Source: Escherichia coli
GTDB lineage: Bacteria; Pseudomonadota; Gammaproteobacteria; Enterobacterales; Enterobacteriaceae
DNA: 64,000 nt
NCBI RefSeq assembly: GCF_001677475.2
Contig: NZ_CP015229.1
Strand: one strand, 5' to 3'
Position 1 is the stretch's first letter. The number at the start of each line of letters is the position of its first letter. The position numbers and the translations under genes are program-made. The notes beneath the pieces were generated by a model. The model was not told the DNA's origin, made no database searches, and saw only the letters and a program-made list of their open reading frames with translations. Of this stretch, positions 38,410 to 49,399 are shown piece by piece.

Positions 38410-38611
38410 TGTAATATCCTTTCTCTTTCTTAGACAGTACCTTACGGCACTGGTGTTAATACCCGATCTTCTGCGCATCCTCGCGACTAATGACAACCCT
38501 AACCCAGCTCTATGTGGGTAAAGCCTCTCATTAGCCGCGCGAACCTCTGCAACGGAAGATCATTCATAGCAACAATACATTAGTTTCCAGTGAATTGCTG
38601 CCGTCAGCTTG

Positions 38612-38635
38612 AAAAAAGGGGCCACTCAGGCCCCC
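38612..38635 (-). terminator. rpsO intrinsic terminator
   Basis: Minus strand: ggggcc-tgagt-ggcccc hairpin followed by tttttt, 20 nt after the rpsO stop. Confidence 0.8.
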
Positions 38636-38655
38636 TTTTCTGAAACTCGCAAGAA

Positions 38656-39021
<366 letters not shown>

Positions 39022-39073: not shown

Positions 39074-40018
39074 TTACGCCGGGTATTCAACCACCAGGCG
39101 ACGAGGCGCAACGCGGCCTTCATCGTCAATTTCGCCCATACCGATAAATTTGCCGTTCTCACCTTCCGTGACGCGAACCAGTCCTTCCAGCGGCGCACCG
39201 GATGTACGAACCGGGTTACCATTTTTGAAGTAAACAGAAGACGTTAACGGAAGATTCACCACCGGATAGTCCGAAGCTGGACTGTCCATTGGCATCAGTA
39301 ATGGATCAAGTAACTCCGCAGCCGGAATATCCTGCTGTTCAGCTTGTTCGACCAGTTCACGCAGATGTTCCAGGGTCACCATCCGTTCAACTGGATATTT
39401 ACTTACCGCCAGACGACGCAGGTAAATAACATGCGCGCCACAACCGAGTTTTTCACCCAGGTCGTCAATGATAGTGCGGATATAAGTACCTTTTGAGCAG
39501 TGAATTTCCAGCTCCAGCTCATTGCCTTCATGGCGAATAAACAGCAATTCATAAACGGTAATCGGACGCGCTTCACGCGGAACTTCAATGCCCTGACGCG
39601 CGTATTCGTACAGTTTTTTGCCCTGATATTTCAGTGCTGAATACATCGAAGGGATCTGTTCGATATCGCCACGGAAGGTATCCAGCGCCGCCGCCAGTTG
39701 CTCTGCACTAAAGGTTACCGGACGTTCTTCAACGATTTGTCCATCGGCATCGGAAGTATCGGTACGCTGTCCAAGACGCGCAATCACCCGATAGCGTTTG
39801 TCGGAGTCCAGCAGATACTGGGAAAACTTCGTCGCTTCCCCGAGGCAAATCGGCAACATGCCAGTTGCCAGCGGGTCCAGCGCGCCGGTGTGTCCGGCAC
39901 GGTTGGCGTTATATATACGTTTCACTTTTTGCAGCGCATCGTTGCTGGACATACCCTGCGGTTTATCCAGCAACAAAACGCCGTTAATGTCGCGACCGCG
40001 ACGACGAGGACGACTCAT
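39074..40018 (-). CDS. truB: tRNA pseudouridine-55 synthase, 314 aa
   Basis: 314 aa; ATG overlaps the rbfA stop by 1 nt. Confidence 0.95.
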
Positions 40019-40419
40019 TAGTCCTCCTTGCTGTCGTCCGGGTTAACACGACGTTCTTCGTCATGTTTGACCACGCTGGTCACCAGGTTTGACATGCGCA
40101 TCCCTTCAACCAGCGAGTTGTCGTAGAAGAAGGTCAGTTCCGGCACGATACGCAGGCGCATCGCTTTCCCCAGCAGGCTGCGGATGAAACCAGAAGCTTC
40201 CTGCAACGCTTTGATGCCCGCTTTAACCGCGTCTTCATCTTTGTCGTTGAGGAATGTCACATATACTTTGGCATACGCCAGGTCGCGAGACATTTCGACA
40301 CCGGAAACGGTGGTCATCATGCCCAGGCGAGGATCTTTAATTTCACGCTGCAGGATGAGAGCGATCTCTTTTTGCATTTCCTGCGCTACGCGCTGCGGGC
40401 GACCAAATTCTTTCGCCAT
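40018..40419 (-). CDS. rbfA: Ribosome-binding factor A, 133 aa
   Basis: Start at internal ATG ([33 protein letters not shown]) preceded by an aggag SD. Confidence 0.95.
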
Positions 40420-40435
40420 AATAAATTCTCCTGAC

Positions 40436-40461
40436 AAAAAAGGGGCTGTTAGCCCCTTTTT
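40436..40461 (-). terminator. Hairpin and T-run immediately upstream of the rbfA SD (putative partial terminator/attenuator after infB)
   Basis: Minus strand: aggggctaacagcccct followed by ttttt, then gtcaggagaatttatt ATG. Confidence 0.55.
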
Positions 40462-40494: not shown

Positions 40495-40572
40495 TGGCCT
40501 GATAAGACGCGCCAGCGTCGCATCAGGCAATCCATGCCGGATGCGGCGTAAACGCCTTATCCCGCATGGAAC
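40495..40572. repeat. REP/BIME element between infB and rbfA
   Basis: gcctgataagacgcgccagcgtcgcatcaggc and tgccggatgcggcgtaaacgccttatcccgcatgg. Confidence 0.85.
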
Positions 40573-40582
40573 CCTAAAAACC

Positions 40583-43255
40583 TTAAGCGATGGTACGTTG
40601 GATTTCGATGATTTCGAATACTTCGATCACATCGCCAGTGCGGACGTCGTTGTAGTTCTTAACGCCGATACCACATTCCATACCGTTACGGACTTCGTTA
40701 ACGTCATCTTTGAAGCGGCGCAGGGACTCCAGCTCGCCTTCGTAGATAACCACGTTGTCGCGCAGAACGCGGATCGGGTTGTGACGTTTAACCACACCTT
40801 CGGTAACCATACAACCTGCGATGGCACCAAATTTCGGTGATTTGAATACGTCACGAACTTCCGCCAGACCGATAATCTGTTGTTTCAGTTCCGGAGACAG
40901 CATACCGCTCATTGCCGCTTTCACTTCGTCGATCAGGTTATAGATGACGGAGTAGTAACGCAGATCCAGGCTTTCCGCTTCAATCACTTTACGTGCAGAG
41001 GCATCAGCACGTACGTTGAAGCCAACCAGGATGGCGTTGGACGCCGCAGCCAGGGTAGCGTCGGTTTCGGTGATACCACCTACGCCAGAACCGATGATCT
41101 TCACTTTAACTTCGTCAGTAGACAGTTTCAGCAAGGAGTCGGAGATAGCTTCCACAGAACCCTGTACGTCTGCCTTCAGGACGATATTCACTTCGTGAAC
41201 TTCGCCTTCGGTCATGTTGGCGAACATGTTCTCGAGTTTAGATTTCTGCTGACGCGCCAGTTTAACTTCGCGGAATTTACCCTGACGATAGAGTGCAACT
41301 TCACGCGCTTTCTTCTCGTCACGTACAACGGTAACTTCATCACCCGCAGCCGGAACGCCGGACAGGCCGAGGATTTCCACCGGAATGGACGGACCCGCTT
41401 CCAGCACTTCCTGACCCAGTTCGTTACGCATCGCACGAACACGACCGTATTCGAAGCCACACAGAACGATATCGCCCTTGTGCAGAGTACCTTCACGTAC
41501 CAGAACGGTAGCAACCGGACCACGACCTTTATCGAGGAAGGATTCGATAACCGCACCGCTCGCCATGCCTTTACGTACCGCTTTCAGTTCCAGAACTTCC
41601 GCCTGCAGCAGGATAGCGTCCAGCAGCTCATCGATACCAGTACCCGCTTTCGCAGACACATGTACGAACTGGCTTTCACCGCCCCACTCTTCCGGCAGGA
41701 TGCCGTACTGGGAGAGTTCGTTCTTAACGCGATCCGGATCGGCTTCTGGTTTATCGATCTTGTTCACTGCAACGACCACCGGAACCTGCGCCGCTTTCGC
41801 GTGCTGGATTGCTTCGATGGTCTGCGGCATTACGCCGTCGTCGGCAGCAACAACCAGGACTACGATGTCCGTTGCCTGCGCACCACGAGCACGCATTGAA
41901 GTAAACGCGGCGTGCCCCGGGGTGTCCAGGAAGGTGATCATGCCGTTTTCAGTTTCAACGTGGTATGCACCAATGTGCTGGGTAATGCCGCCCGCTTCGC
42001 CAGAGGCCACTTTCGTTGAACGAATGTAGTCCAGCAGAGAGGTTTTACCGTGGTCAACGTGACCCATGATGGTCACAACCGGCGCGCGCGGTTCAGCCGC
42101 TGCCCCCGTGTCACGGTCGCTCATTACCGCTTCTTCCAGCTCGTTTTCACGACGCAGGATAACTTTGTGGCCCATCTCTTCAGCAACCAGCTGTGCGGTT
42201 TCCTGATCGATAACCTGGTTGATGGTTGCCATTGCGCCCAGTTTCATCATCGCTTTGATGACCTGAGAGCCTTTAACAGCCATCTTGTTCGCCAGTTCGC
42301 CAACGGTGATGGTTTCGCCGATCACAACGTCACGGTTAACGGCCTGAGCAGGCTTCTGGAAGCCTTGCTGCAGCGAAGAACCTTTACGTTTTCCGCCTTT
42401 ACCGCCACGTACTGCTGCGCGTGCTTCTTCACGATCAGCTTTTGATTCAGCGTGTTTGTTGCCTTTCTTCGGACGCGCAGCTTTCGCGTTACGACCACGG
42501 CCACGGCCGCCTTCGACTTCACGATCGCTTTCGTCTTCTGCCTGGCGAGCATGTTGAGAAGTAGTGACGTGATAATCGCTGGAATCTTCAGTCGGTTCCG
42601 CGTTATCAGTCCATTTGTTTTCTTCCGCCATACGACGTGCTTCTTCAGCAACGCGACGTGCTTCTTCTTCGAGTTTACGACGCGCTTCTTCTTCGGCTTT
42701 ACGCTTGAGCTCTGCAGCTTCCTGCTCACGGCGGGCTTTTTCAGCCTGGGCGTTTTTAGTCATATCGTCTTGTTGATTGCTCACTTTGTCTTTTTCCGCA
42801 GCTTCACGTTTCGCTTGTTCAGCAGCTTCACGCTTAGCTTGTTCTGCGGCCTCACGTTCAGCTTTTTGTTGCGCCTCGCGTTTAGCCGATTCTTCTGCCT
42901 CACGACGGGCTTGCTCTTCCGCTTCACGCTGCGCTTGCTCTTCCGCTGCAAGGCGTTCAGCCTCTTGCGGATCGCGTTTCACAAAGGTGCGTTTCTTGCG
43001 GACTTCGATTTGTACCGATTTGCTTTTTCCACCGGTACCAGGAATGTTAAGGGTGCTGCGTGTTTTACGTTGCAGCGTCAATTTGTCCGGGCCTGAATTT
43101 TTCTGATTCAGGTGGTCAATCAAAGTCTGTTTCTCTTGTGCGGACACAGAGTCGTCAGCAGACTTCCGGATACCTGCATCAGCAAATTGCTGTACCAGGC
43201 GTTCCACGGAGGTCTGTCGCTCTGCGGCCAGCGTTTTAATCGTTACATCTGTCAT
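40583..43255 (-). CDS. infB: Translation initiation factor IF-2, 890 aa
   Basis: 890 aa; Glu/Ala/Arg/Lys-rich N-terminal region; GTPase G-motifs (GHVDHGKT); in-frame internal GTG (codon 158) and ATG (codon 165). Confidence 0.97.
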
Positions 43256-43279
43256 GCTGTTCCTTCCTGCTACAGTTTA

Positions 43280-44767
<1,488 letters not shown>

Positions 44768-45263: not shown

Positions 45264-45284
45264 TAAAAAAAGGGCCTAAAGCCC
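45264..45284 (-). terminator. Hairpin and T-run directly upstream of rimP
   Basis: Minus strand: gggctttaggccc followed by ttttttt. Confidence 0.55.
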
Positions 45285-45305
45285 AGTTATTCTGTAGTCA
45301 GATAA

Positions 45306-45328
45306 CAAAAAACCCCGATAAATCGGGG
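45306..45328 (-). terminator. Intrinsic terminator downstream of metY
   Basis: Minus strand: ccccgatttatcgggg followed by ttttttg. Confidence 0.65.
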
Positions 45329-45453
45329 CTTTATATAACTGAACCCTATAACCGCAACTGCGGTCTGGAGCACTTTCCAGAAGGATTTTTTCAAATCCCA
45401 CTACGAAGGCCGAAGTCTTCACAGTATATTTGAAAAAGGACTCTAAGGGAAAG

Positions 45454-45530
<77 letters not shown>

Positions 45531-49312: not shown

Positions 49313-49399
49313 TGGTACCGAGGACGGGACTTGAACCCGTAAGCCCTATTGGGCACTACCACCTCAAGGTAGCGTGTCTACCAATTCCACCACCTCGGC
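49313..49399 (-). tRNA. leuU: tRNA-Leu, 87 nt, long variable arm
   Basis: Reverse complement reads GCCGAGGTGGTGGAATTGGTAGACACGCTACCTTGAGGTGGTAGTGCCCAATAGGGCTTACGGGTTCAAGTCCCGTCCTCGGTACCA. Confidence 0.93.

Follow-up and report, generated by a model that had tools for sequence, protein, structure and literature searches.

Internal initiation within infB is already known in Escherichia coli K-12, where it is annotated in the reference genome and experimentally proven. For the K-12 internal starts, later papers cite Plumbridge (1985), Nyengaard (1991) and Sacerdot (1992). In the reference record NC_000913.3, b3168 has three coding features. Their ends, at record positions 3316014, 3315543 and 3315522, match an ATG at codon 1, a GTG at codon 158 and an ATG at codon 165; the feature beginning at GTG158 is YP_010283915.1 and that beginning at ATG165 is YP_010283916.1. 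Genetic proof came from the substitutions g474c (GUG to GUC) and t494c (AUG to ACG), which change codon 158 at its third base and codon 165 at its second. They eliminate the short forms of IF2 and leave a functional IF2-1 (Madison, 2012; PMC3334882). The two sites are also referred to by name, as 'GUG158 and AUG165', in the TRAINSPOTTER study (2026; PMC13245402), the supplement of which contains N-terminal peptides covering residues 158-175 and 165-175 (MTKNAQ...). The residue-158 peptide carries the Met that is decoded at GUG158 (PMC13245402, supplement). Since the gene encodes Val at this position, only initiation at the GUG explains such a peptide and proteolysis is excluded. Ribo-RET has likewise recorded sharp peaks of retapamulin-arrested ribosomes where internal initiation in infB had been verified (Meydan et al., bioRxiv 10.1101/520783), and a homologous pair of IF2 proteoforms is described in Salmonella (PMC11005335). 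The short forms are without Domain I (the first 157 residues), including the first IF2_N sub-domain. Domain I of the long form binds NusA and has been tied to replication restart, DNA-damage tolerance and genome-integrity phenotypes, and best growth requires both long and short IF2 (PMC3334882, PMC13245402). Here we examine the corresponding sites in another E. coli strain and ask how they compare with those of K-12 and with their homologues in related bacteria.

Results

An infB gene encoding a protein identical to K-12 IF2

The window analysed here is a stretch of 64,000 nucleotides of an E. coli genome, and a single long open reading frame covers the sites of interest (Table 1). This frame lies on the minus strand and comprises 890 codons from an ATG start to a TAA stop, such that codon n begins at position 43255-3(n-1). 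We assign it to infB because its product scores 988 bits against TIGR00487, because RefSeq annotates infB here and because the protein is identical to K-12 IF2. The TIGR00487 score (NCBIfam IF2 equivalog, residues 306-889) lies above the cut-off of 424.4 and places the protein within the family. Pfam recovers the set of domains typical of IF2, namely IF2_assoc (residues 56-94), two stretches of IF2_N (the best at 314-364), GTP_EFTU (393-549), IF-2 (665-779) and GTP_EFTU_D2 (810-877), and PDB chains of full-length E. coli IF2 (e.g. 3jcj_f) align with the window protein over residues 1-890.

The surroundings agree with this assignment. RefSeq places infB between nusA and rbfA and gives the operon order metY-rimP-nusA-infB-rbfA-truB for the identical region as well as for K-12, with the rimP leader and a tRNA recognised by Rfam. 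A 901-nt query spanning the nusA-infB junction and the internal site found matches in 5425 of 5426 complete E. coli genomes; identity was 100% in six of the genomes listed, and the matched gene is annotated as infB downstream of nusA. Compared with K-12 MG1655, the window infB differs at 34 of 2673 nucleotides, all of them synonymous, with no amino-acid difference. The differences closest to the internal starts are at nucleotides 114 and 561, and the interval from 115 to 560, with both starts inside it, is identical in the two strains. Divergence that is wholly synonymous indicates that purifying selection on IF2 is very strong in E. coli.

The Rfam matches elsewhere in the window (Table 1) are all expected for this region of E. 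coli. For the neighbouring rbfA, also on the minus strand, the list of open reading frames gives 40018-40437 from a TTG at 40437 (139 aa), compared with 402 nt and about 133 aa in RefSeq; the longer frame simply reads on upstream as far as the first start-like codon.

Table 1. Positions and properties of features in the 64,000-nt window; duplex energies refer to pairing with the 3' end of 16S rRNA and ranks to the start-like codons in frame within infB
Feature	Position	Strand	Details
infB CDS, full-length IF2-1 (alpha)	40583..43255	-	890 aa, computed 97.3 kDa; ORF, TIGR00487, Pfam, RefSeq
ATG1			duplex -6.5 kcal/mol, rank 1 of 44
GTG codon 158, start of IF2-2 (beta)	42782..42784	-	product 40583..42784, 733 aa, computed 79.7 kDa; duplex -3.5 kcal/mol, rank 8 of 44; GGA at -13..-11, 10-nt gap to start codon
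ATG codon 165, start of IF2-3 (beta-prime, gamma)	42761..42763	-	product 40583..42763, 726 aa, computed 78.9 kDa; duplex -1.9 kcal/mol, rank 27 of 44
AAA (Lys157) directly before GTG158, in A-rich spacer	42785..42787	-	AAA in 91/92 aligned sequences
GCGGAAA block, -15..-9 of GTG158	42793..42799	-	holds the SD-like GGAA at -13..-10
A-rich, structure-poor mRNA pocket with both internal starts	42741..42830	-	predicted folding
24-nt tandem repeat, about 3 copies	42790..42864	-	encodes AEQAKREA repeats just upstream of the internal starts
Out-of-frame ORF, TTG start	42781..42951	-	56 codons; TGA overlaps GTG158
RNase P RNA	548-924		Rfam, gathering threshold
SraG	38468-38639		Rfam, gathering threshold
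S15 (rpsO) leader	38869-38983		Rfam, gathering threshold
naRNA4, infB-rbfA spacer	40496-40566		Rfam, gathering threshold
rimP leader	45265-45365		Rfam, gathering threshold
tRNA, at the place of the initiator-tRNA gene metY in K-12 gene order	45457-45530		Rfam, gathering threshold
Second tRNA	49316-49399		Rfam, gathering threshold
greA leader	56052-56173		Rfam, gathering threshold

Codons 158 and 165 correspond to the characterised K-12 starts

The original prediction had placed an in-frame GTG at codon 158 and an in-frame ATG at codon 165 on the minus strand. Re-translation and a scripted check agree exactly with this placement, and coordinates, strand and codon number proved correct for both codons. 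The 890-codon infB thus contains both codons in frame, and their nucleotide context is the same as that of the K-12 sites. The further claim, that these are the positions known to initiate the shorter isoforms, is borne out by the annotation, the mutants and the peptides of K-12, where the protein is identical. The masses computed from the window agree with the published IF2 masses of 97.3, 79.7 and 78.8 kDa (PMC3334882), and the ribosome-profiling peaks that were proposed as a check have been published for K-12, where Ribo-RET detects initiation at the verified internal site. Finally, the K-12 record lists three products of one gene, in keeping with the view that the internal starts do not mark a separate gene.

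Taken individually, neither codon would attract attention. There are 44 in-frame start-like codons among the 890 of infB (21 ATG, 20 GTG and 3 TTG), and a single GTG or ATG at any position in the gene is therefore unremarkable. This number favours the view that the two are ordinary Val and Met codons which match the known positions by coincidence, as does the weak Shine-Dalgarno (SD) match at both sites described below. We nevertheless consider a coincidence vanishingly improbable. Both starts are annotated and proven in K-12, whose IF2 has the same amino-acid sequence as the window protein, and the Met-158 peptides and start-codon mutants have already refuted this reading. Codons 158 and 165 stand out from the other start-like codons because they are identical by descent to the sites characterised in E. 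coli. Initiation at both codons, with the GUG decoded as initiator Met, has been shown for K-12 with the identical sequence.

A different account of the short forms would derive them from IF2-1 by proteolysis, or from a shorter transcript produced by an internal promoter or by RNA cleavage. In the history of the subject this was the alternative that had to be eliminated. We found no support for either, and a truncated mRNA would in any case use the same codons. Against both stand the loss of the short forms upon single-base changes to the start codons with functional IF2-1 retained (PMC3334882), and the initiating ribosomes caught at the site by Ribo-RET; proteolysis in particular is contradicted by the finding of Met at residue 158, a Val codon in the gene (PMC13245402). 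A search for a sigma-70-like promoter on both strands of 42600..43400 found none, which argues against a shorter transcript. Taken together, these observations leave this account very improbable, and translation initiation at the two internal codons is the reading that we retain.

A weak Shine-Dalgarno match within an mRNA pocket predicted to be open

The strength of potential SD pairing was assessed by pairing positions -20..-4 of each in-frame start-like codon with the 3' end of 16S rRNA (Table 1). A strong SD, with pairing that lies some 5-9 nt before the start codon, was sought by duplex energy and is absent at GTG158 and ATG165. The original prediction had suggested looking for an SD-like sequence upstream of 42784, and a GGAA is indeed present there; the match is weak (-3.5 kcal/mol), which refines the reading of the site as a start and does not contradict it. 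We therefore reject a canonical SD-led site, there being a weak GGAA for GTG158 and essentially nothing for ATG165. The SD criterion alone would not single out either codon.

What does distinguish the two starts is the predicted structure of the surrounding mRNA. Folded alone, the 90 nt around them have a minimum free energy of -9.2 kcal/mol, compared with -20.4 and -20.5 kcal/mol for the flanking 90-mers, and of 200 dinucleotide-preserving shuffles, 195 are more structured (z = +1.56). When the gene is folded locally, the region from -20 to +9 of ATG165 ranks first among the 44 start-like codons in predicted accessibility (99.4th percentile of all codons) and that of GTG158 ranks fifth (96th percentile). 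The fraction of A at both starts is 0.47-0.50 against an infB mean of 0.27. This property would extend beyond E. coli, since in 80 of 89 species the predicted accessibility maximum of the segment lies between 3 codons before and 12 codons after the GTG. The open pocket is a product of predicted folding, and its meaning is limited by the elongating ribosomes that keep unwinding this stretch of the message. Rfam, searched at its gathering threshold, did not find a known RNA element at the internal-start site.

Synonymous constraint around GTG158 in Enterobacterales

Homologous loci were fetched from contigs of a set with one genome per species, using a degenerate DNA pattern to codons 82-94, which leaves the internal sites outside the pattern. 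This procedure returned 111 loci, of which those long enough and with Val at the position of codon 158 were aligned. The resulting 92 sequences (the window included) represent 91 distinct loci from Enterobacteriaceae, Pectobacteriaceae, Yersiniaceae and Hafniaceae. The counts that follow come from sequences which share one tree and are not phylogenetically independent, at loci that were chosen by an exact degenerate pattern. One apparent peculiarity of the collection, a second infB copy in Affinibrenneria salicis (NZ_VYKJ01000001.1, L055/L056), was discarded. The two entries are 100% identical and have coordinates mirrored about the scaffold length, so they are one stretch listed twice and not a gene duplication.

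All 92 sequences have GTG at the position homologous to codon 158, despite the fact that GTG accounts for only 22% of Val codons in these segments; with the exception of V85, each of the other columns with a conserved Val shows three or four different codons. Upstream, the GCGGAAA block is unvaried in 92/92, including the synonymous sites at -13 and -10. The Lys157 codon is never AAG (0/92), the lone exception to AAA being an AAC, and downstream Q161 is CAA throughout and Ser159 is AGC wherever it is Ser. Across codons 153-161, five of the six degenerate conserved codons are synonymously invariant, compared with 6 of 115 elsewhere (Fisher p = 1.3e-5, a value that ignores phylogeny, but the contrast is still meaningful since one tree underlies all columns). 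Both the universal GTG and this focus of synonymous constraint on codons 153-161 speak against ordinary Val and Met codons at the two sites.

Some other codons are also invariant or nearly so at synonymous positions in the 92 sequences, namely A112 GCG (42920-42922), V85 GTC (43001-43003), K93 (42977-42979) and E276 (42428-42430). A112 lies in GCGGAAGAG, the first six bases of which are those of the GCGGAAA block, and no in-frame start codon follows A112.

The second start is less well preserved. ATG165 is ATG in 65/92 sequences (71%) and is replaced by GTA, GCA, AAA, ACG and other codons in Rahnella, Rouxiella, Ewingella, Hafnia, Trabulsiella, Atlantibacter and more. Outside the aligned families, the Vibrio loci (L013, L021, L031, L039, L059, L063, L070, L077-L079 and L097) and a Burkholderiaceae metagenome-assembled genome (L076) have neither the GCGGAAA...GTG block nor a homologue of ATG165. 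One of the Vibrio loci, L013, is no longer IF2-like beyond the pattern, which it may match by chance. Within the loci sampled, the internal site appears to be confined to Enterobacterales.

The alignment also bears on the idea of translational coupling, in which initiation at GTG158 would follow from termination of an upstream, out-of-frame ORF; the TGA of that ORF overlaps the GTG (as GTGA). The overlap is present in the window, and the A at +4 of GTG158 that it needs is kept in 92/92. This A follows from residue 159, which is Ser (AGC), Thr or Ile, and that choice of residues explains why it is invariant. Moreover, the frame itself is not conserved: its open length varies from 5 to 73 codons across 91 species, 16 of the 91 are without a start-like codon in the frame and the first start differs among the rest. 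That the alternative frame is open at all reflects the paucity of T in the GAA/GCN/AAA/CGT-rich repeats. We accordingly reject the out-of-frame ORF as a coupling device and give translational coupling almost no chance of being correct. Two antisense ORFs on the plus strand (42452..43096 and 42777..43106) were also dismissed as products of the low-complexity repeats; RefSeq annotates nothing there.

Upstream repeats and variation within E. coli

Tandem Repeats Finder reports several arrays of 24-, 21- and 12-nt units between 42620 and 42947 on the minus strand (codons ~104-212), which encode the E/A/K/R-rich linker of IF2. Across E. coli, the 101 nt around the internal sites are at least 99% identical in 5420 of 5425 genomes. 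The most divergent genome is that of strain E5, the infB of which is 24 nt (8 codons) shorter. The difference lies upstream of the internal starts: the E5 gene departs from the window sequence at the repeat array and further upstream, and is identical to it across both starts. By sequence, the internal starts of E5 would be codons 150 and 157. Repeat copy number sets the codon numbering of infB, and the shorter E5 gene means that 158 and 165 do not hold as codon numbers for every E. coli strain.

Discussion

We regard it as nearly certain that GTG158 and ATG165 are in-frame internal translation starts of infB, this being the best explanation of the observations. A single infB mRNA offers three starts, with AUG1 giving rise to IF2-1, GUG158 to IF2-2 and AUG165 to IF2-3. 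In the mechanism that the sequence analysis suggests, the 30S subunit would enter directly at the A-rich pocket within the coding region, which is predicted to be unpaired. Instead of a strong SD, the GGAA at -13..-10, weak yet under strict conservation, would aid its entry. On the evidence of the alignment, GUG158 would be the ancestral and main internal start, universal in the sampled Enterobacterales. AUG165 would be a second start reached from the same loading pocket, one that many lineages may have lost or may never have had. Judging from the folding predictions, the most likely route is that the 30S subunit loads directly onto an open pocket where the SD is weak, and any role for ribosomal protein S1 at the infB internal site is a matter of speculation.

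A stronger version of this proposal can be formulated, in which GCGGAAA-N5-AAA-GUG-A, with its invariant synonymous sites and set in a conserved open pocket, is a specific internal ribosome-entry element common to the sampled Enterobacterales. GUG158 would then be obligatory and AUG165 optional, and the ratio of long to short IF2 might be set or regulated by something beyond SD pairing, such as an S1 standby or feedback by IF2 itself. We consider this version unlikely. Laursen et al. (2002; Genes Cells 7:901) reportedly came to a similar 'open structure' conclusion by probing and are said to have found that the short IF2 forms are made from intact mRNA, and the idea of an entry element in infB is probably largely covered by that work.

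What the present analysis adds is the finding that GUG158 and the weak GGAA are under strict synonymous constraint in the sampled Enterobacterales, and that AUG165 is dispensable in many lineages. A third, equally modest addition is that codon numbers in infB shift with the number of repeats. There is also a practical consequence for annotation. Neither the GTG nor the ATG should be called a separate gene or the 'true' start of infB, and a full annotation would give three products from one gene, as is the case in the K-12 reference record.

Comparison with known systems

Short forms of IF2 are not peculiar to enterobacteria. Bacillus subtilis and other bacteria are described as making short IF2 by initiating in frame at internal codons that lie between the two IF2_N sub-domains; those internal sites are not homologous to the GTG158 site of infB. 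Within E. coli itself, clpB, mrcB, arcB, speA and cheA likewise yield a full-length and an N-terminally truncated product from an in-frame internal start detected by Ribo-RET. Compared with these five genes, infB differs in having two starts 21 nt apart. Many such internal sites in E. coli have a recognisable SD-like sequence, whereas the match in infB is weak and an A-rich, structure-poor pocket is found instead. The closest system by far is GUG158/AUG165 of K-12 infB, which shares with the window the gene, the protein, the codons, their numbers and their context, the two genes being distinguished only by synonymous substitutions elsewhere. The sites described here are the same feature in another strain of E. 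coli.
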